A stretch of 32,000 bases of DNA from Candidatus Nitrospira inopinata (GCF_001458695.1 NZ_LN885086.1:3120001-3152000), one strand, 5' to 3'. Shown: positions 7,287 through 27,753, counted from the stretch's first letter. The notes: generated from the letters alone by a model not told the origin. Program-made: numbers and translations.

Positions 7287-7365
<79 letters not shown>

Positions 7366-17316: not shown

Positions 17317-17500
17317 GCTCGTGCGATAAGCGGTTCGAGGACTTCTTATAGTGGAATCTCGGCGACGTCTTGTGTAGAATGCCTCCGCGAATGCGAGCGC
17401 GACACCTCCCCGTTCTCCTGACCCAGGTTCCATGTTGCGCAATCAGGCGCAGCCAACCCTGACGGTTTCCACGTGCTCGGTTCGCATCAGTAGCAAGCGT

Positions 17501-17576
17501 GGGGGGCTAGCTCAGCTGGGAGAGCACTACGTTCGCAACGTAGGGGTCGCGGGTTCGACTCCCGTGCCCTCCACCA
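17501..17576 (+). tRNA. tRNA-Ala (anticodon CGC)
   Basis: GGGGGGCTAGCTCAGCTGGGAGAGCACTACGTTCGCAACGTAGGGGTCGCGGGTTCGACTCCCGTGCCCTCCACCA. It has the G3:U70 identity pair, anticodon loop TTCGCAA, and encoded CCA. Confidence 0.95.
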
Positions 17577-17626
17577 ATTCTCGCGCACGCATGCCGGCCG
17601 CCGTGTTTGATCGCATCCCTGTGGAC

Positions 17627-17807
17627 GGTGCATCCCGACCAAAAGACGACACGCTTTGGTCTCCTCCCCGCCAGGCGGACCTTCGACCAGATCGGCCCCG
17701 CGGAGGTTGAGATACCCGACGCAGAACGAACTGGCCGTGGCATCGGGCAGCGCCGCGTGCAGGCCTTCCAACAGTTTCAGCGCGATGTTGTCAAAAATCT
17801 GCGGCAT
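17627..17807 (-). pseudogene. Possible 5' remnant of a PLD-domain/SNF2-type helicase gene
   Basis: MPQIFDNIALKLLEGLHAALPDATASSFCVGYLNLRG....GGEETKACRLLVGM resembles, from memory, the conserved N-terminus of PLD-nuclease/helicase fusion proteins (..IFDN...L...L......DFCVGYFNLRGW.....GG...CRLLVGM). The similarity stops after about 60 codons and the ORF then runs antisense through the tRNA-Ala gene. Confidence 0.3.
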
Positions 17808-18461: not shown

Positions 18462-19460
18462 TTATGGAGCGGGCTCGCCCATGTCAGACGGAACGTCAGA
18501 TGCCGGAGCCTGGATTGCCGACCGTGCCTCGCCCCTGAACGGCAGTTCCAGCAACGCATAGGGATTGACGCGCGCGCCGTTGAGTTTGACGCCCCAATGG
18601 AGATGGGGACCGGTCGCACGGCCGGTTGCCCCCACCTTGCCGATGACCTGTCCGGCCCGCACCGCGTCGCCTTCCCTGACCAGTATTTCCGACAGGTGGA
18701 AATACATGGAATAGAATCCGAGCCCATGATCGACATACACCCCCTTGCCGGAGAAGATGTGATCGACCGTCAGCCGTACGACGCCGTCGTTCGTCACCGC
18801 CACGTCGGCGCCGACGGGGGCTCCAATGTCCTCGCCGTTATGAGGGCTGCGGGCTTGGCCGTTCATGATTCTGACGCTGCCGAAAATCCCGGTTCGTCTT
18901 CCGCTGACCGGCTCCGCGAAGCCCGATCGCCACAATCTGATCGGTGAATCGTCCGCCAGCGCCGTTTTGACCTGCTCTTGCTCCGCTTTCCAGCGCTGCA
19001 AGCTCCGCTCGTCAAGATCGACCTTGTCTTTGGGCAAGGTCAGCCGCTCGACACGGAATTTCTCTTTCAGCACTTCCACGTGATAGGTGAGCCGCCGACT
19101 GCCGCCCTTCTGCTCGATCTCGATCGCAAGCTCGTGGGTCCCCGGTTTATCCTCCAGGTCGATGCCGAGCAGCCCGACAAACTCTTTGCTCTCATCCGGT
19201 CCGGTCTCGCGAAAAAATCTGACGGTTCTGCCCCTGAACGTTCCGCGAGCCTCACGCGACGTCTCGTCCGCCGGAACTTTCACGACGAGAATCTGGCCCT
19301 GTTTACCCTTGTACCGTCCTCCATCGTCTGTGGACGCGGAAGCAGCCTCCCCTGCGGTGAGAACCATTGCCGGACCGCCGAGGGCAAGAACGGCAACGAC
19401 CAGCATCCCCCTCCACGGAAGGGACCGCCGTCCGACGAACGTCTTGGCCGGCCGGCTCAT
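18462..19460 (-). CDS. Exported M23 (LytM-type) metallopeptidase
   Basis: HNGEDIGAP...D (HxxxD) and the HLHWGV (HxH) zinc motifs. Signal-anchor MLVVAVLALGGPAMVLTAGEA. The start ATG 19460 overlaps the pafA stop (ATGA). Confidence 0.9.
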   Translation of the reverse strand: MSRPAKTFVGRRSLPWRGMLVVAVLALGGPAMVLTAGEAASASTDDGGRYKGKQGQILVVKVPADETSREARGTFRGRTVRFFRETGPDESKEFVGLLGIDLEDKPGTHELAIEIEQKGGSRRLTYHVEVLKEKFRVERLTLPKDKVDLDERSLQRWKAEQEQVKTALADDSPIRLWRSGFAEPVSGRRTGIFGSVRIMNGQARSPHNGEDIGAPVGADVAVTNDGVVRLTVDHIFSGKGVYVDHGLGFYSMYFHLSEILVREGDAVRAGQVIGKVGATGRATGPHLHWGVKLNGARVNPYALLELPFRGEARSAIQAPASDVPSDMGEPAP

Positions 19461-20851
19461 CGGTGAAACCGCCCTCCCGGCATCTGCGACAGCAATTCCT
19501 CGACCCGCCGATTCACGGCGCTGAACGGATCCATGCAGAGAATCGTCTCCTCCCAGTAGCCGTTCAACTTCAAATAGGTCCAATCGACCGTGTAGGAACG
19601 GTTCTTCGCCCTTGCGAACCGAATGAAATCTCCTCGCACCTTGGCTCTGGTCGTCTGCGGAGGCGTGGACATGGCCCGTTGCACGGCGTCTTCTTGCACG
19701 ATCCGCTCGACCAACCCGCGCGATTCCAACAAGTAGTACAATCCTCTTGTGCGCTTCACGTCGTGGAATTGCAAATCCAACAGCAAGACGCGGGGATCAT
19801 CCCATCCGCACTCTTTCTTGTCCACATATGATTGAATCAGGTGCTTCTTGGTCACCCAGTCGATTTGATGCGCCAACTGCATGGGATCTTCTTCCAACTG
19901 ACGGAGCACCGCCTCCCACTTGGCATACACGTCGTCGAGCGTCGCATCGTGTTCTTCCTGGTCCAGATACTGCCGCGCGCGCTCCAAATAGACCCGCTGG
20001 ATCTCAATGGCGGTCATGTAGCGGGCGTCGTCAAGCCGGACTTTTTTCTTGAGGGTGGGATCCCTTGCGATTTCGCGAATCGCCTTCACGGGGTCCTCCA
20101 GCTCCACTCCATGAACCAGATAGCCCTCTTCGATCATCGACAGAACCAGCGCCGCCGTCCCCACCTTGAGATACGTGGCGAATTCCGACATGTTGGAATC
20201 TCCCACGATGATGTGCAGCCGCCGGTAGCGTTCCGCGTCGGCGTGCGGCTCGTCGCGCGTGTTGATGATGCTGCGGGACGACGTCGTGGAGGAGGAGGTC
20301 TTTTCGTGAATGTGCTGCGCTCGTTGGGAAATGAAATACTGGGGCTTGCCGGACACCTTGAGGACCTTTCCCGCCCCGCTGAACACCTGCCTCGTCACGA
20401 AAAACGGGATCAATTGCTCCGTGACTTTCCAGAAATCGACGTCCCGCCGCATGAGAAAATTCTCGTGACACCCGTAGGTGTTGCCCAGCGAATCGGTGTT
20501 GTTCTTGAAAATGTAAATTTCGCCCGACAATCCTTCTTCGCGAAGCCGCTCCTCGGCGGCCGGCAGGCAGGCCTCCAGCAGCCGCTCGCCGGCCTTGTCG
20601 TGAGTCACCAGATCAAGAATGTTGTCGCATTCAGGGGTGGAGTATTCCGGATGGCATCCGGTGTCCTGATAGAACCTCGCACCGTTGACGAGAAAGGCGT
20701 TCGACGGCCAACTATTGGGGATCAGCCCCTCGAAGATGTAGCCCAGGACCTTTTCCATGGGGAGATAAATTCTCCCATTGGGCGAAAAGATGAGGCCGTA
20801 CTCGTTTTCGAGACCGAAAATTCTTTGTTTCATCGGACCTGTGCCGGCCAT
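19457..20851 (-). CDS. pafA: Pup--protein ligase PafA
   Basis: MKQRIFGLENEYG...NGARFYQDTGCHPEYSTPECD...THDKAGERLL is collinear with mycobacterial PafA and lacks the Dop insertion. The homology-based start is ATG 20833 (MKQRIFG). Confidence 0.93.
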   Translation of the reverse strand: MAGTGPMKQRIFGLENEYGLIFSPNGRIYLPMEKVLGYIFEGLIPNSWPSNAFLVNGARFYQDTGCHPEYSTPECDNILDLVTHDKAGERLLEACLPAAEERLREEGLSGEIYIFKNNTDSLGNTYGCHENFLMRRDVDFWKVTEQLIPFFVTRQVFSGAGKVLKVSGKPQYFISQRAQHIHEKTSSSTTSSRSIINTRDEPHADAERYRRLHIIVGDSNMSEFATYLKVGTAALVLSMIEEGYLVHGVELEDPVKAIREIARDPTLKKKVRLDDARYMTAIEIQRVYLERARQYLDQEEHDATLDDVYAKWEAVLRQLEEDPMQLAHQIDWVTKKHLIQSYVDKKECGWDDPRVLLLDLQFHDVKRTRGLYYLLESRGLVERIVQEDAVQRAMSTPPQTTRAKVRGDFIRFARAKNRSYTVDWTYLKLNGYWEETILCMDPFSAVNRRVEELLSQMPGGRFHR

Positions 20852-20927
20852 GGGCTGATAAAATCAGATTACACGGCCCTTCTTTGATCCGCAAGAGAAG
20901 GCGTGGAACGGCGTGAGGCGAGGGGCG

Positions 20928-21614
20928 CTAATCGGAGAGCAGCCGTCGAACGTCGGCGACCGACAATCGACGAAATTTTCGGCCGAGGCGGTTGCGGTCC
21001 AACAACGCGACTTCCAGACCTTCGGGGGGCAATTTCTGATTGGCCGTCTGTTCGAGCGCCGACACGCAAAGCGACAGAGCGGCTCCCAACGCGGTCGGCT
21101 CGGTCGAGATCTTGTCCTTCAAAACCGATTGAACGGCCTCCGCCCTTCCCCCGATGACCGCAAAATTTTTTTCGTCGATGATGCTGCCGTCGAAGGAAAT
21201 GCGATAGATCTCGTTGGGATGGCCGTTGACGCCGACTTGCACGACCAAAATTTCCACTTCGAGGGGTTTGATCTCCTGGCTGAATATCGTGCCGAGACTT
21301 TGTGAATAGCCGTTCGCGAGCGAGCGAGCTGTCACGTCTTCCCGACTGTACATGAATCCCTTGAGATCGGCGTGCCTGATACCGGCCTTCCGCAAGTTTT
21401 CAAACTCGCTGTATTTGCCTGCTCCGGCAAAGGCGATGTTGTCGTACACCTCCGAGATCTTGTGCAGAGAAGCGCTGGGATTGTCCGCCGTCAGCAGGAC
21501 ACCGTCCGCGTATTCCATGGCGATGATCGACCGGCCCTTGGCAATGCCCTTCTTGGCATACTCGGCCTTGTCCTGCATCATCTGTTCGGGGGACACGTAA
21601 TACGGCAGCGGCAT
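20928..21614 (-). CDS. prcA: 20S proteasome alpha subunit PrcA
   Basis: MPLPYYVSPEQMMQDKAEYAKKGIAKGRSIIAMEY...NPS.SLHKISEVYD..AFAGAGKYSEFENLR closely parallels Mtb PrcA. GAGGGAGG RBS lies within the end of prcB. Confidence 0.95.
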   Translation of the reverse strand: MPLPYYVSPEQMMQDKAEYAKKGIAKGRSIIAMEYADGVLLTADNPSASLHKISEVYDNIAFAGAGKYSEFENLRKAGIRHADLKGFMYSREDVTARSLANGYSQSLGTIFSQEIKPLEVEILVVQVGVNGHPNEIYRISFDGSIIDEKNFAVIGGRAEAVQSVLKDKISTEPTALGAALSLCVSALEQTANQKLPPEGLEVALLDRNRLGRKFRRLSVADVRRLLSD

Positions 21615-21617
21615 GGA

Positions 21618-22457
21618 TTACGCCTCCCTCGAACGGCGCGCGGCGATCAACCCGTCGTACACCGAGCGAACCTTCTCGTCGGACACGTCGACGATCCCTT
21701 GGGCCGTCACGAACTTGGCCGTCGGATAAATGCCTCGCACAAGATCCGGCCCCCCGGTGCCCACGTCGTCGTCCGCGGCGTTATACAGGGCCGTCAGCGC
21801 CAGGTCGAGCGCGTCCGGCTCGGCCATGCTTTTTCGAAAGTGTTCGCGCATGGTGTTGCGGGCGTCCTTCCCGCCCGACCCGATCGCGTGATAATCGGAC
21901 TCTTCGTATCGGCCGCCGGCGAGGTCATACTTGAAGATGCGCCCTTCGCCGCGCTTCACGTCGTATCCCGCGAAAAGCGGCATGACAATGAGCCCTTGGA
22001 ACGCCAGGGGAAGATTGGCCTTGACCATCTGACCGAGCTTGTTCGCTTTTCCTTCGCACGACAACGGCACGCCTTCCAATTTTTCGTAGTGCTCCAGCTC
22101 CGTCTGGAACAATTTGGCCATCTCGATGCAGGGCCCGGCGGCGCCCGCGATCGCCATGGCGGACCAGTCGTCGATCTTGAAGACTTTTTCAATGCGTCGG
22201 TCGGCGATTTGGAACCCCTCCGTCGCCCGTCGGTCCCCCGCGATGACCACGCCGTCACGATACTTGACGGCCAAAACCGTGGTGGCGTGGGGGACCGTCA
22301 GGTGCGCTCCTTGAGCCGTCTGCTCCGGTGGCACGGCGCGGCCGGCGGATGCGGTTTTTCCTGCGCCCGGCAGAAGACCCGGCCGGTGTTCGGCAAGGAA
22401 ATCAAAAAAGCTGGAACTCTCAAAATCAGGGAAATAGGGCGACTTCATGCCATCCAT
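21618..22457 (-). CDS. prcB: 20S proteasome beta subunit PrcB (with propeptide)
   Basis: The propeptide SSFFDFLAEHRPGLLP...PHA is followed by the Thr nucleophile TTVLAVKYRDGVVIAGDRRATEG. Confidence 0.95.
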   Translation of the reverse strand: MDGMKSPYFPDFESSSFFDFLAEHRPGLLPGAGKTASAGRAVPPEQTAQGAHLTVPHATTVLAVKYRDGVVIAGDRRATEGFQIADRRIEKVFKIDDWSAMAIAGAAGPCIEMAKLFQTELEHYEKLEGVPLSCEGKANKLGQMVKANLPLAFQGLIVMPLFAGYDVKRGEGRIFKYDLAGGRYEESDYHAIGSGGKDARNTMREHFRKSMAEPDALDLALTALYNAADDDVGTGGPDLVRGIYPTAKFVTAQGIVDVSDEKVRSVYDGLIAARRSREA

Positions 22458-22477
22458 CGAAACGAACGGAAATCGAC

Positions 22478-23977
22478 TCAGGCCTTCAACTTTTCAATCA
22501 AGGCGTCGACCGAGTCAACAAGGTCCAATAAACCGCCGGTCAACGCCTGGGTGCCGCGATGCGGGTCCATCAGCGGCACTCGCTTGATGGTCCCGTCCCC
22601 CACGTCGAACAAGAGCGACGTCCAGCTCGCGCCGTAGAGCGACCTGGCGAACTTGCTCGCGCAGCGCCCCCGAAAGTACGCTCTCGTGTTCGGCGGAGGC
22701 GTCAATTCGGCCCGTTGGATATCTTCCTCATGCACGATGCGATCAACGTGACCGCCGCGCTCCAGGGTATAAAACAATCCGCGGTCGGGACGGACGTCGT
22801 GGTATTGAAGATCCATCAATTTCGTTCGAGGATCGTCCCAGCCGCACCGCTTCCGGTCCATATAGGATTCAATGAGATGGCGCTTGGCCACCCAATCCAA
22901 TTCCCGCACCAGCAGGCGTGGATCCTGCTCGAGCTTGTCGAGCACCTCCTCCCACCGCGCGAGAACGTTCCGTGTTTCATCGTCGCAGCCCTCTTGAGCG
23001 TAAAAGTCTTTGGCGGCCCGGAGGTAGGCGCGCTGCACGGCCACGGCCGTCGTCGGACCGCCCCCGGCCAACTTGATCGTCTCCTTCATCTCCAGATCGC
23101 GCGACACCTGCCGGAACGCCCGGACCGGCTCGTCCAGCTCGATGACCGGCGGCGTGGCTCCTGCTTCCAAAAGATCGAGCACGATGCTCAAGGTTCCGAC
23201 CTTGAGAAAGGTGGAGACCTCGGCCATGTTGGCGTCGCCGACGATGACGTGAAACCGCCGATACTTCGCGTGGTCGGCGTGCGGCTCGTCTCGGGTGTTG
23301 ATGATCGGTCGCTTGACCATCGTGTTGAGATCGACCAAACACTCAAAAAAATCCGCGCGCTGAGAAATCTGGTACTCGGCGGGGCTCGTCTGATTTTCCG
23401 CTCCGACTTTTCCGGCTCCGGCAAAGATCGGCCTCGTGACAAGAAAGGGCGTCAGGACCCTGACGATGCTCTCGAACGGCACGGTCCTGGAAACCAGATA
23501 ATTCTCATGATACCCGTAGCTGTTGCCCTTGCCGTCCGAATTGTTCTTGTACAGAACGTACAGATCCCGCCCCACCACCCTCGCCATTTCCTGAAGACTT
23601 TGGGCCAGAATCCGCTCTCCCGCCCGTTCAAACGCCACGACTTCACGAGCCCGTGAACATTCCGGCGTGGAGTATTCCGGATGGGCGCCGTCCACGTACA
23701 GCCGTCCGCCGTTGGCCAGCACTTTGTTGAGTTGTCGATTGTAATCCGGGTTGGGCCGTTCCCGCTCTCCCTCGACTTCGAACCCTCTGGCGTCCAGCAG
23801 GGGATTTTCGTGCTCGTAATCCCAAATCGCGGCGGGGGCGGGAATTCTCCTATAATGTCCGATCACGGCGATGGAGCTCGACACGGGATCGGAAACGGAC
23901 GAGTCCTTCGCCGCGATACCGAATTCGGTTTCGGTGCCAAGCACGCGCGGACGAGTCGTCGGAGTGTCTTTCCGCAT
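22478..23977 (-). CDS. dop: Pup deamidase/depupylase Dop
   Basis: VLGTETEFGI..., the Dop-specific insertion WDYEHENPLLDARGFEVEG..., and NGGRLYVDGAHPEYSTPEC. 499 aa against 464 aa for the PafA paralogue. Confidence 0.93.
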   Translation of the reverse strand: MRKDTPTTRPRVLGTETEFGIAAKDSSVSDPVSSSIAVIGHYRRIPAPAAIWDYEHENPLLDARGFEVEGERERPNPDYNRQLNKVLANGGRLYVDGAHPEYSTPECSRAREVVAFERAGERILAQSLQEMARVVGRDLYVLYKNNSDGKGNSYGYHENYLVSRTVPFESIVRVLTPFLVTRPIFAGAGKVGAENQTSPAEYQISQRADFFECLVDLNTMVKRPIINTRDEPHADHAKYRRFHVIVGDANMAEVSTFLKVGTLSIVLDLLEAGATPPVIELDEPVRAFRQVSRDLEMKETIKLAGGGPTTAVAVQRAYLRAAKDFYAQEGCDDETRNVLARWEEVLDKLEQDPRLLVRELDWVAKRHLIESYMDRKRCGWDDPRTKLMDLQYHDVRPDRGLFYTLERGGHVDRIVHEEDIQRAELTPPPNTRAYFRGRCASKFARSLYGASWTSLLFDVGDGTIKRVPLMDPHRGTQALTGGLLDLVDSVDALIEKLKA

Positions 23978-23984
23978 GGAGACG

Positions 23985-25754
23985 TCAGAGGTAATGGCCG
24001 GTGGTCACGGTTTCGATCTGGCGGGACTCGCCGGGTCCGCCGCTGATCGTTCTGATGTGAACGATCTTCTCGCCCTTCTTCCCGGCGATTTTCGCCCAAT
24101 CATCCGGATTGGTCGTATTGGGAAGATCTTCGTGCTCTTTAAACTCCTCGCGGATGGCGCGCAACAGATCTTCCAGCCGCAGACCGTGCCCCTCCTTTGC
24201 AATGGCCCGCTTGACGGCGAATTTCTTGGCGCGCGACACGATGCCCTCGATCAAGGCTCCGCTGGCGAAATCCTTGAAATACAGCACTTCTTTTTCGCCG
24301 TTGGCGTACGTCACCTCGATGAACTTGTTTTCCTCACTGGCGGCATACATGGTCTCGACGATCCGCACAGTCAGCCGTTCCACGAAGGCTTGGCGGTCGC
24401 CCCCGTGTCGATCCAACTCGCTCTGATCGAACGGCAAATCCGGCGACAGATACTTTGAGAAAATGTCCCGCGCCGCTTCGGCGTCCGGACGCCCGACTTT
24501 GACTTTGACGTCCAGCCGTCCGGCCCGCAACACCGCAGGGTCGATCAAATCCTGCCGGTTGCTGGCTCCGATGACGATCACGTTGCGCAGGCGCTCCACT
24601 CCGTCTATCTCCGACAAAAATTGCGGAACGATCGTCGATTCGATGTCGGACGAGATGCCGCTCCCCCTCGTCCTGAACAAGGCATCCATTTCGTCGAAAA
24701 AGACGATCACCGGATGACCGTCTTCCGCGCGCTCCTTCGCCTTTTTGAAGACCTCCCGTACCTGCCGTTCGGACTCGCCGACGTACTTGTTGAGCAGTTC
24801 AGGGCCTTTGACGTGGAGAAAATAGCTGCGGATCTCCTTACCGGTGCGGTGACCGAGTTTTTTGGCGATCGAATTGGCGACGGCCTTGGCGATGAGCGTT
24901 TTGCCGCAGCCGGGCGGCCCATACAACAAGACGCCCTTCGGAGCGCTCAGCTTGTACTCGGCGAACAGGTCCGGATATAGGAACGGCAATTCGACCGCGT
25001 CCCGTACCTGCTCCAGCTCTTTCTGAAGCCCGCCGATACGCGAGTAATCGACGTCGGGAACCTCTTCGAGCACCAGTTCTTCCGCTTCCGATTTCGGCAG
25101 TTTTTCGATCACGTATCCGGAACGAGGATCGTACAAGAGATGGTCGCCGACGCTCAATCGATCGGCCAGCAACGGATCTCCCAACTCGACGACTTTCTCT
25201 TCGTCGAAGTGCAACGTCACGAGCGCGCGTCCTCCCTCCAACACGTCCTTGAGTCGCACCACCTCCCCCTGTCTGTCGAAGCTCTTCGCCTCAATGACGT
25301 TGAGCGCTTCGTTCAGCACGACCTCCTGTCCCTTCCTCAATTGAGAACCGCTGATGGAGGGATGAATGCTGACTTTCATTTTTCTGCCGGACACGAACAC
25401 GTTTCCCGTCCCGTCCTCATTGAGGCTCGAGAAAATGGCGTACGACGAAGGAGGAGCCGTCAGCTTGTCGACTTCGGCGCGCAGCGTTTCAATTTGCGTC
25501 TTCGCCTCTTGAAGCGCCGCGACCAGCCGTTCATTCTGCTTGTTCACCTGCTCAAGCTGGTAGCGCGATTGATACAAGCGACGGATTTCTTCCTCCATCG
25601 ACTGAATTTGCTCGCGAAGCCTGTCGGTTTCTCCGGCGTGCTCGTCGTTTTTGTGAATCATGCCCGCATTCCTCTCTGATAACCGCTTGGTGATTTTCTT
25701 GACGGAATCGCGGAGGGACCGGAGCCGGGTCTGTTGATTTTTGCTTTCTCCCAT
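23985..25754 (-). CDS. mpa: Proteasome-associated AAA+ ATPase Mpa/ARC
   Basis: N-terminal coiled coil, OB domains, Walker A GPPGCGKT, Walker [28 protein letters not shown] and the C-terminal docking motif ...GHYL (actinobacterial GQYL) are present. Confidence 0.96.
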
Positions 25755-25817
25755 GTGCGGCGCTCGACATTCGCCCCCGACATCGGTCGAAAGCGAGTCC
25801 GTATGCTCCTTTTTCGG

Positions 25818-25846
25818 ATTCTAACACCCGACCCTGGGGTGGTCAA
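25818..25846 (-). promoter_or_regulatory. Candidate sigma-70 promoter of the mpa-dop-prcBA-pafA operon
   Basis: On the minus strand: TTGACC (25846-25841), 17 nt spacer, TGtTAGAAT (extended -10, hexamer 25823-25818). It lies about 64 nt upstream of the mpa ATG and immediately downstream of the thiE stop. Confidence 0.5.
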
Positions 25847-25857
25847 CTGGAGCGGCG

Positions 25858-26520
25858 CTACGCGCGCGGGATTGCGCGAGCATCGGAATTGGATGATGCA
25901 GCCAGTGCGGCCAACAGATCGCGCGTCGCGGCGGCGACGTCGTCGCGACCGAGAATCGCCCCGATGACCGCGACGCCATGCGCGCCGGCTCGACGAACGG
26001 CAGGCACCGCTGCACAGGTGATTCCTCCGATGGCGAACACCGGAGCCGTCGAGAGCCGGCAGGCTTCGGCCAATCGCTCCAGTCCGACGGGAGATCCGAA
26101 CTGCCGCTTGGACGGCGTGTCAAAGACCGGCCCGAACACGACGTAGTCCGCCCTCTCTTGATTGGCGGCTTGCACTTCCGAGAGAGAATGCGTCGAAATT
26201 CCAATCAGTCGATCGACTCCGACCAGCCGGCGAACGGCCGAGAGCGGGAGGCTGTTGGTGCGCAGATGAACGCCGTCCAGATTCATCGCCAACATCAGAT
26301 CGACCCGATCGTTGACGATCAATGGCACGGCCCTGGGTTTCGTAAACGAGCCGATCTCGCGCCCCAACTGAATCAGCTCTCGTGTCGGCAAATCTCGCTC
26401 GCGAAGCTGAATGGCCGGCAGCCCCGCCTCGACGGCCTGACGAAGAAGCTCCAGGAAGGGGCGCCCCCGTGCTTGGGTTCGATCCGTGACCAACAGCAGA
26501 CGAAAATCAACGGACCGCAT
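25858..26520 (-). CDS. thiE: Thiamine-phosphate synthase ThiE
   Basis: FRLLLVTDR...AIQLRERDL...LIVNDRVDL...GVHL...IGIS.H......ADYVVFGPVF.T.SK... is the typical ThiE sequence. ATG 26520 is preferred over GTG 26550. Confidence 0.9.
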   Translation of the reverse strand: MRSVDFRLLLVTDRTQARGRPFLELLRQAVEAGLPAIQLRERDLPTRELIQLGREIGSFTKPRAVPLIVNDRVDLMLAMNLDGVHLRTNSLPLSAVRRLVGVDRLIGISTHSLSEVQAANQERADYVVFGPVFDTPSKRQFGSPVGLERLAEACRLSTAPVFAIGGITCAAVPAVRRAGAHGVAVIGAILGRDDVAAATRDLLAALAASSNSDARAIPRA

Positions 26521-26628
26521 ACGGTGATCGAGAGGGACCGGGCATCGCACGCACGCGCCGCCTTGCGCATCCTCGCATCGGAAGAGCGGCCGAGGAACCG
26601 TCGGTTCGCACTTGCGACTTGGAACGAC

Positions 26629-27402
26629 TCAGAGCATTCCCTCTATCGGACTGCTCGCCGTCGCGTAGAGTTTCTTGGGAATTCGGCCGGCCTTGTACGC
26701 CAACCGGCCTGCCCAGACCGCGTATTTCATCGCTTCCGCCATGGCAATGGGATCTCGCGCACCGGCGATAGCCGTATTCATCAATACCGCGTCGGCCCCG
26801 TATTCCATGGCCAACGCCGCGTCTGACGCCGTTCCCACGCCTGCATCGACGATGACCGGGACGTTGACGCTCTCCATGAGAATCTTCAGATTGTACGGAT
26901 TTCTGATCCCGAGCCCCGATCCGATCGGCGCGGCCAACGGCATCACCGCCGGGCATCCGATATCGACCAGTTTCTTGGCGACGATCGGGTCGTCGTTCGT
27001 GTAGGGCAGCACGATGAACCCTTCTTTGATCAGAATTCTCGCCGCTTCGATCAAACCGGCCGTATCGGGAAACAACGTTTTTTCGTCCCCGATCACCTCG
27101 AGTTTCACCAAATCGGAGACGCCGGCGGCGCGGGCAAGACGGGAATACCGCACCGCGTCCTCCACCGTGTAGCAACCGGCCGTATTGGGGAGGATCGTGT
27201 ATTTCTTGGGATCGATGTAGTCGAGCAGGTTTTCTTTGGATCGATCGGTGATATTGACGCGGCGTACCGCCACCGTGACGACGTCGGCTCCCGACGCCTC
27301 GATGGCTTTTTGGGTTTCGGCGAAACTTTTGTACTTGCCCGTTCCTACCCACAGTCGTGACTTGAACTCACGCCCTGCGATGATCAACCGATCGTCCGTC
27401 AT
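26629..27402 (-). CDS. thiG: Thiazole synthase ThiG
   Basis: [24 protein letters not shown]...LPNTAGC...[13 protein letters not shown]...[22 protein letters not shown]. The start ATG 27402 overlaps the stop of the thiS frame (ATGA). Confidence 0.95.
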
Positions 27403-27725
27403 AGCCCCCTCTTCAAAAAATGGCGGGGGAAGCCGTGCGCTCTTGGCGATTCCCTCGGTTCGCCCATGCGGGGCGCATCGACGCCCCCGCCGCCGATACA
27501 CAACGCCCCTCCGCCGATAAAGCTCAGGATCTCCACGCGATCGCCGTCCCGAAGCCGATGTTCCGCGAACTTGGCACGGTCCAAAATTTCGAGGTTGACC
27601 TCCACCGCCACACGGTCGGTCGCGATCTCCAGATCCCGCAACAAATCCGCTACCGTCACGCCGTCGCGCCAGTCCCTCGTCTCGCCGTTCACCTGGATTT
27701 TGATCGCTTCACCCATGACGGTCAT
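27399..27725 (-). CDS. thiS: Sulfur-carrier protein ThiS with a 35-codon extension beyond the Gly-Gly terminus
   Basis: [12 protein letters not shown]...[11 protein letters not shown]......[15 protein letters not shown] is a canonical ThiS beta-grasp. The frame then continues [35 protein letters not shown] to the TGA at 27401-27399. Start is ATG 27725 or 27716. Confidence 0.8.
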
Positions 27726-27753
27726 CCTAGGGGACAAGAATTCGCCTTGTCAA
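27724..27753 (-). promoter_or_regulatory. Candidate promoter upstream of or overlapping the thiS start
   Basis: On the minus strand: TTGACA (27753-27748), 18 nt spacer, TAGGAT (27729-27724). The -10 overlaps ATG 27725, so the transcript would begin near ATG 27716. Confidence 0.3.

Follow-up and report, generated by a model that had tools for sequence, protein, structure and literature searches.

A Pup-proteasome operon without pup in Candidatus Nitrospira inopinata and a stand-alone pup gene beside recJ-relA in Nitrospira genomes

The Pup-proteasome operon and its neighbours

The genome of Candidatus Nitrospira inopinata contains, within the 32,000-nucleotide stretch analysed here (GCF_001458695.1, NZ_LN885086.1:3120001-3152000; hereafter the window), a minus-strand operon for a Pup-proteasome system (PPS) in which the gene for the protein tag Pup is missing. 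The five genes follow one another in the order mpa-dop-prcB-prcA-pafA and are separated by 7, 20, 3 and 76 nt, respectively; coordinates and gaps had been given in an earlier note on this DNA and were confirmed from the open reading frames (ORFs). As we argue below, the tag is very probably a canonical Pup encoded at a distant locus, between hppA and recJ-relA.

The first gene, mpa (also arc; 23985-25754, minus strand), encodes a proteasomal AAA+ ATPase of 589 aa, or of 558 aa if a later alternative start is used. Its product carries the coiled coil, the tandem OB domains, the AAA module and the 20S-docking C-terminus (...TTGHYL) that characterize an Mpa/ARC ATPase, with Pfam matches to PF17758 and PF16450 (Prot_ATP_ID_OB_N/C) and to PF00004 (AAA). 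Comparison with the PDB aligned residues 55-584 with Mpa of M. tuberculosis (7px9) at 655 bits. The second gene, dop (22478-23977, minus strand), encodes a Pup deamidase/depupylase of 499 aa that matches the Pfam family Pup_ligase (PF03136) with 575 bits and the structures 4b0r/5lrt over its full length with 473 bits, the catalytic Asp of LYVDxAHPEYSTPE being kept. It shares 96% identity with Dop of the metagenome-assembled genome (MAG) QZM_B4_3_Bin89 and 81% with that of N. moscoviensis.

Between dop and prcB, where other lineages carry pup or UBact, the window holds an empty spacer of 20 nt (22458-22477). It is followed by prcB (21618-22457, minus strand) for the beta subunit of the 20S proteasome (Pfam Proteasome, PF00227, 138 bits), which has a propeptide of 58 aa and the nucleophile Thr59 at the junction of PHA and TTVLAV; residue 1 of the mature chains 1q5q_H and 2fhg_H aligns with this Thr59. 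The alpha subunit gene prcA (20928-21614, minus strand; 228 aa; PF00227, 68.7 bits) stands in conserved synteny next to it. The Pup ligase gene pafA (19457-20851, minus strand; 464 aa; PF03136, 525 bits) matches 4b0t/4bjr over residues 7-457 with 380 bits and keeps the Asp of YQDxxxHPEYSTPE. Thus the operon holds two Pup_ligase paralogues with their catalytic residues, one closest in the PDB to 4b0r (Dop) and the other to 4b0t (PafA), as well as 20S alpha and beta subunits with the propeptide and the Thr1 nucleophile. The earlier description of an intact ligase, deamidase, GHYL-tailed ATPase and Thr-nucleophile beta subunit is borne out by these Pfam and PDB comparisons.

A gene for a peptidase (Pfam Peptidase_M23; 18462-19460, minus strand) is likely the last gene of the operon, because its first 4 nt are shared with the end of pafA; an overlap of this kind suggests that the two genes are translationally coupled. 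The M23 protein has 332 aa in the gene calls of two identical assemblies (L093, L096), and the gene lies downstream of pafA in many of the loci that we compared. The mechanically derived ORF is longer (18462-19583, minus strand; 373 aa), starts with TTG and overlaps pafA by 127 nt; the gene calls prefer the later start. Upstream of mpa lie the thiamine biosynthesis genes thiS-thiG-thiE (25858-27737, minus strand; Pfam ThiS, ThiG and TMP-TENI), which are outside the tagging system. Judged from its predicted proteins, the arrangement thiSGE-mpa-dop-prcB-prcA-pafA-M23 makes up a complete, functional-looking Pup-proteasome operon.

Absence of pup from the operon in the window and across Nitrospirales

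Profile hidden Markov models (HMMs) for Pup and UBact were built locally from 120 database sequences each; the UBact seed was validated against NF033388 (80 bits) and then used to gather the family. When these models were applied, with the --max setting, to the six-frame segments of 12 aa and above, neither of them matched anywhere in the 32 kb window. In positive controls the Pup HMM gave 56-119 bits on pup-bearing loci and the UBact HMM 114 bits on the verrucomicrobial locus L083. A scan of stop-to-stop segments in six frames, which required neither a start codon nor a certain gene length, found no segment of the window ending in GG[QE] or [RK][STA]G[EQ]. The dop-prcB spacer thus lacks the pup gene expected of a PPS, and the window is likewise devoid of the UBact family (PF20513 / NF033388) with its R[ST]G[EQ] end. 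These empty motif and HMM searches uphold the earlier observation that the operon includes neither modifier. Broader motif scans (GG[QE], [RKQ][STA]G[EQ] and G[EQ]) on the window and 80 further loci gave only out-of-frame junk in Nitrospirales. The C-terminus of Dop was considered as a fused Pup-like helix and ruled out, as this region also aligns with Dop of Acidothermus.

The same earlier note had allowed for a sequencing error hiding pup. This is excluded, since independent assemblies carry the same operon: over its 6298 nt there are 0 mismatches to an independent NCBI assembly (L093, GCA_041694755.1) and 3 to a JGI assembly, and the exact dop-prcB junction is present verbatim in 6 assemblies.

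With Dop as query, 80 loci were obtained from the species representatives of GTDB. The synteny thiSGE-mpa-dop-prcB-prcA-pafA was seen in essentially all Nitrospirales loci, and none of the 60 Nitrospirales species loci holding both dop and prcB gave a match to the Pup HMM within 10 kb on either side of dop. The approximate dop-prcB gap in these 60 loci has a median of about 19 nt. Four gaps exceed 200 nt (L044, L045, L048 and L050) and contain neither a Pup-like ORF nor a Pup HMM signal. Three of them, from marine or sponge-associated Nitrospirales, are spacers of about 250-300 nt (L044:5869-6154, L045:11461-11773 and L048:11461-11763) filled with palindromes resembling repetitive extragenic palindromic (REP) elements, whose repeat units include CCTCCCCTTTGTAAGGGGAGG and CCCTCCTTACAAAGGAGGGG; they were rejected as pup sites, being without Pup or UBact HMM signal. 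A chance frame in L044 ends in ...RTGE. The large gap of L050 was likewise dismissed, as it has no ORF of interest.

A canonical pup (end ...EEFVKNFVQKGGE or ...NYVQKGGE) occupies the space between dop and prcB in the sister Nitrospiria loci L056 and L058, and pup was also found at this position in one Poribacteria locus and in those Actinomycetota loci that extend far enough. The third Nitrospiria genome, L087, has the order thiSGE-mpa-dop-pup-prcB-prcA-pafA-M23, that is, the architecture of the window plus pup. In the lineage without it, identity to the window proteins is 84-92% for PafA and about 70-84% for Dop in most Nitrospira/Nitrospiraceae loci, and 73-80% and 61-67%, respectively, in the deepest Nitrospirales. 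Such levels suggest that the two enzymes, for which Pup is the only substrate known, remain under constraint. As a separate observation, Methylomirabilota (L065:1436-1473) and Rokubacteria (L068:6259-6333) have mpa-dop-prcB-prcA(-pafA) with no pup or UBact in the dop-prcB gap, nor was either found elsewhere in the DNA examined of these two loci; these lineages may have unlinked tags too.

A stand-alone pup gene at hppA-pup-recJ-relA

The L056 Pup, used as query against the protein collection, had 1167 relatives, of which the best 120 were used to compare subgroups and C-termini. Among these, the relatives 59-89% identical to the query include a coherent subgroup that begins with MEKQERRPE... 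and ends with ...DEIDDVLEENAEEFVKNYVQKGGE. The Nitrospira-type Pup is a canonical protein of 65 aa (PF05639; end ...EEFVKNYVQKGGE), with a disordered, basic N-terminus and a helical C-terminal end. Within the 120 proteins compared, its C-terminal half is nearly invariant and most Nitrospira Pups end in GGE, not GGQ.

The gene for this protein is an orphan: on the contigs L081 and L084-L086 no proteasome genes are nearby, and the context is (multihaem cytochromes)-hppA-pup-recJ-relA-DUF192-acyl-CoA ligase. The core hppA-pup-recJ-relA was present in every inspected contig with a Nitrospira-type Pup, about 30 in number (including L081, L084-L086, L089, L090/91, L101 and L102-L119). A marine-type variant (L099) has hppA-pup-relA. 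For two abundant Pup variants the index gives 257 and 387 collection blocks, and all 20 places listed for them showed hppA-pup-recJ-relA. The best named matches of the RecJ encoded beside the orphan pup are almost exclusively from Nitrospiraceae, Nitrospira or Nitrospirota.

Two complete chromosomes have the same arrangement, those of Nitrospira sp. Nam74 (L089, OZ224220.1, 5.17 Mb) and Nitrospira sp. CP126122.1 (L090/91, 4.6 Mb), and in both the 65-aa gene product matches Pfam Pup. Public annotation already uses the name, with the entries 'ubiquitin-like protein Pup [Nitrospira sp. Nam74]' (WP_447984412.1) and '[Nitrospiraceae bacterium]', so that RefSeq has these proteins as Pup. Moreover, the MAG REEB37 (whole-genome shotgun prefix JAGWTI01) carries the pup-less operon on JAGWTI010000055.1 (L034) and a Pup (P0239) in hppA-pup-recJ-relA on JAGWTI010000099.1 (L101); subject to correct binning, both features occur in one genome.

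In the CP126122.1 chromosome a terminator-like hairpin of 13 pairs with a T-rich tail (L090:4764-4793) overlaps the pup stop codon. It is formed in part by the last Pup codons AAA GGA GGG GAA TAG (K G G E stop) and their reverse complement, so that the sequence for the invariant C-terminus also serves as the 5' arm of the stem. A promoter-like site lies upstream of recJ and, like the terminator, is a consensus match only. Since the hairpin lies at the pup stop and the promoter-like site before recJ, they suggest that pup is transcribed separately from recJ-relA. In some Nitrospiraceae contigs a 32-aa ORF, MDAP.ALTCCLTVWE.LEYLRCSDAISLVFEL, was called between hppA and pup (L081/L084:5890-5988 and L086:671-769). 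It is probably spurious, as it covers the pup leader and is uncalled in the complete genomes; the leader region under it has TTGAC-like hexamers, which were seen without a formal scan.

Explanations for the missing tag gene and comparison with known systems

In the explanation that we consider very probable, pup would have been lost from its ancestral dop-prcB position in the ancestor of the order Nitrospirales, and Pup would be supplied from the stand-alone gene between hppA, coding for an H+-pyrophosphatase, and recJ-relA. The genome of Candidatus Nitrospira inopinata would then have such an orphan pup beyond the 32 kb examined here, and the enzymes of the operon would use its product. By analogy with the actinobacterial pathway, PafA would join the gamma-carboxylate of the Pup C-terminal Glu to substrate lysines, and the Mpa coiled coil would capture Pup and thread the substrate into the 20S core. 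Dop would act chiefly as a depupylase that removes Pup, since deamidation is superfluous for the majority of Nitrospira Pups, which have GGE at their end from the outset. The level of PafA identity and the near-invariant C-terminal half of the orphan Pup would fit a continued co-function of the two. The earlier note had left three options, namely a modifier encoded elsewhere, a highly divergent or very short one, and a different tag. The orphan pup loci lend strong support to the first, and the other two become unnecessary. Relatives routinely encode pup at a distant locus, hppA-pup-recJ-relA, which, as that note had itself anticipated, makes the explanation an ordinary one.

Several points weigh against this explanation. 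Among the places listed for Dop and Pup, no Pup came from samples carrying the exact operon of the window. The link made by REEB37 rests on correct MAG binning, and the evidence from Nam74 and CP126122.1 covers the orphan pup locus, not the operons of these two strains. The location is not universal, since the complete genome of Nitrospira sp. Kam-Ns4a (L092, OZ224218.1) has recJ-relA without hppA-pup upstream; in this strain pup must be elsewhere or absent. The region upstream of its recJ (L092 1-5000) has OEP, Rce1-like and metallo-beta-lactamase-fold genes in place of hppA-pup. Finally, the literature searched reported no experimental pupylation in any Nitrospira.

More tentatively, pup may have moved a single time, anciently, at the base of Nitrospirales, with the gene transcribed separately and the supply of tag regulated independently of the enzymes. 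A tie to energy or starvation signalling is conceivable, because the neighbouring genes code for a pyrophosphatase and a (p)ppGpp synthetase. Nitrospirales would then be the first lineage with a clade-wide broken pup linkage. We regard this extended scenario as possible, though doubtful.

Of the explanations that do without a distant pup, a true loss of the modifier survives best and is still highly improbable. Mpa and the 20S core would degrade untagged substrates, while Dop and PafA would be kept for another reaction or another tag. This would agree with the lack of a tag gene in the window and within 10 kb of dop in 60 related species, the genome in question having been read within the 32 kb window only. 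It is opposed by the canonical pup of Nitrospira/Nitrospiraceae, including two complete chromosomes and a MAG with the pup-less operon, and by the orphan Pup itself, whose C-terminal half is nearly invariant, which is what continued binding by PafA, Dop and Mpa would predict. Less probable again is that a Pup/UBact-like ORF, either very short or strongly diverged, lies hidden in the operon or elsewhere in the window. Small ORFs are easily overlooked, and HMMs are weak on very divergent short peptides. However, the start-independent scan offered no candidate with a terminal G[EQ] near the operon, the exhaustive HMM runs stayed empty, the spacers of 20 and 3 nt are too small, and a hidden tag is needless given a canonical Pup elsewhere.

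The adjacent ubiquitin-fold protein ThiS (27399-27737, minus strand) might be imagined to have taken over as the proteasome tag, since in nearly all Nitrospirales loci thiS-thiG-thiE directly precedes mpa, and since ThiS combines a GG motif with the beta-grasp fold. We consider this very unlikely and rejected ThiS as a replacement tag. The thiSGE-mpa synteny is also found in the pup-bearing L056 and L087 and is therefore older than the relocation, and the protein scores as a sulfur-carrier equivalog (TIGR01683, 76.5 bits) encoded beside ThiG and ThiE. In addition, the chemistry of PafA requires the side-chain carboxylate of a C-terminal Glu, whereas the ThiS core ends in Gly-Gly and the 35-aa extension beyond it ends in Leu. 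That an assembly or sequencing artefact deleted pup has next to no probability: it is a general possibility only, and the operon recurs in NCBI, JGI and Logan assemblies with 0-3 mismatches, its junction in 6 of them, and the same architecture in 60 species.

The ThiS extension deserves mention in its own right. The ORF reads 35 aa past ...FIGGG and overlaps the start of thiG by 4 nt, and the extension is reproducible in independent assemblies of the species (L093 among them). In other Nitrospira (L001, L003, L005, L013, L021 and L030) ThiS has variable extensions of 1-25 aa, and in L087 it ends in GGG. If translated as predicted, the extension implies either C-terminal processing before activation as a sulfur carrier or the use of an internal form. 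Elsewhere in the window there are genes for tRNA-Ala(CGC) (17501-17576, plus strand) and tRNA-Pro(CGG) (7289-7365, minus strand); a mechanically derived ORF at 17487-17807 (minus strand) is an antisense reading across the tRNA-Ala region.

Nitrospirales matter worldwide as nitrite oxidisers and comammox bacteria, and if the ability to pupylate were judged by operon content alone, they would wrongly be scored as tag-less. An unknown tag is unnecessary for Nitrospira, given an ordinary Pup encoded elsewhere. The order provides a clean natural case of a tag gene uncoupled from its enzymes, and a handle on whether the abundance of a tag is regulated apart from the machinery. According to published descriptions, pup lies without exception next to a gene of the PafA family (PMC2588565), and organisms competent for pupylation conserve the gene order rigidly (PMC3511204). 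The arrangement in Nitrospira contradicts both generalisations as a modest exception in gene order. It appears to be undescribed, as we found no mention of an unlinked pup in Nitrospira in the literature searched. The proteins are nevertheless already named Pup in public annotation, and the explanation is an ordinary one.

With regard to known systems, the UBact locus of Verrucomicrobiota (L083) follows the same logic as the operon of the window: it comprises an AAA ATPase, a Pup_ligase-family gene, a small tag, the beta and alpha subunits and a second Pup_ligase-family gene. UBact (PF20513 / NF033388; end ...RYRQRTGE/Q) is a family distinct from Pup, and its HMM matched neither the window nor any Nitrospirales locus among the 80 loci. 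The named matches listed for the family belong to Verrucomicrobiota or Omnitrophica, none of them to Nitrospira. The enzymes of the window are much closer to those of Pup-type systems, its Dop being 44% identical to the L083 homologue versus about 50% to Dop proteins of actinomycetotal MAGs. The earlier statement on UBact within such loci holds for Verrucomicrobiota, where the tag gene follows the dop-like gene and precedes that for the beta subunit. It fails for Nitrospiria: the relatives that we saw carry Pup ending in GGE/GGQ, and UBact can be set aside as the tag of Nitrospirales.

The actinobacterial PPS (M. tuberculosis, Rhodococcus, Acidothermus; mpa-dop-pup-prcB-prcA-pafA) has the five enzyme and protease components of the window, encoded in identical order and direction. 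Dop keeps its catalytic Asp, PrcB its Thr1 and Mpa its xYL tail, the latter as GHYL in the window versus GQYL, and the Pup of the Nitrospirales clade is canonical (PF05639; end ...FVKNYVQKGGE). Unlike in actinobacteria, pup of Nitrospirales lies between hppA and recJ-relA and not between dop and prcB, and the window is without pafBC, has an M23 gene overlapping the pafA stop and has thiSGE upstream.

The closest comparison is with other Nitrospiria, the Manganitrophaceae-like L056, L058 and L087, which have the same flanks (thiSGE and M23) and the same enzyme order as the window, with identities of 60-61% for Dop and 75-77% for PafA. Their Pup is 66-70% identical to the orphan Pup of Nitrospira, the C-terminal halves being nearly identical. 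Unlike the window and all Nitrospirales, these genomes keep pup in the dop-prcB gap, which measures about 190-270 nt.

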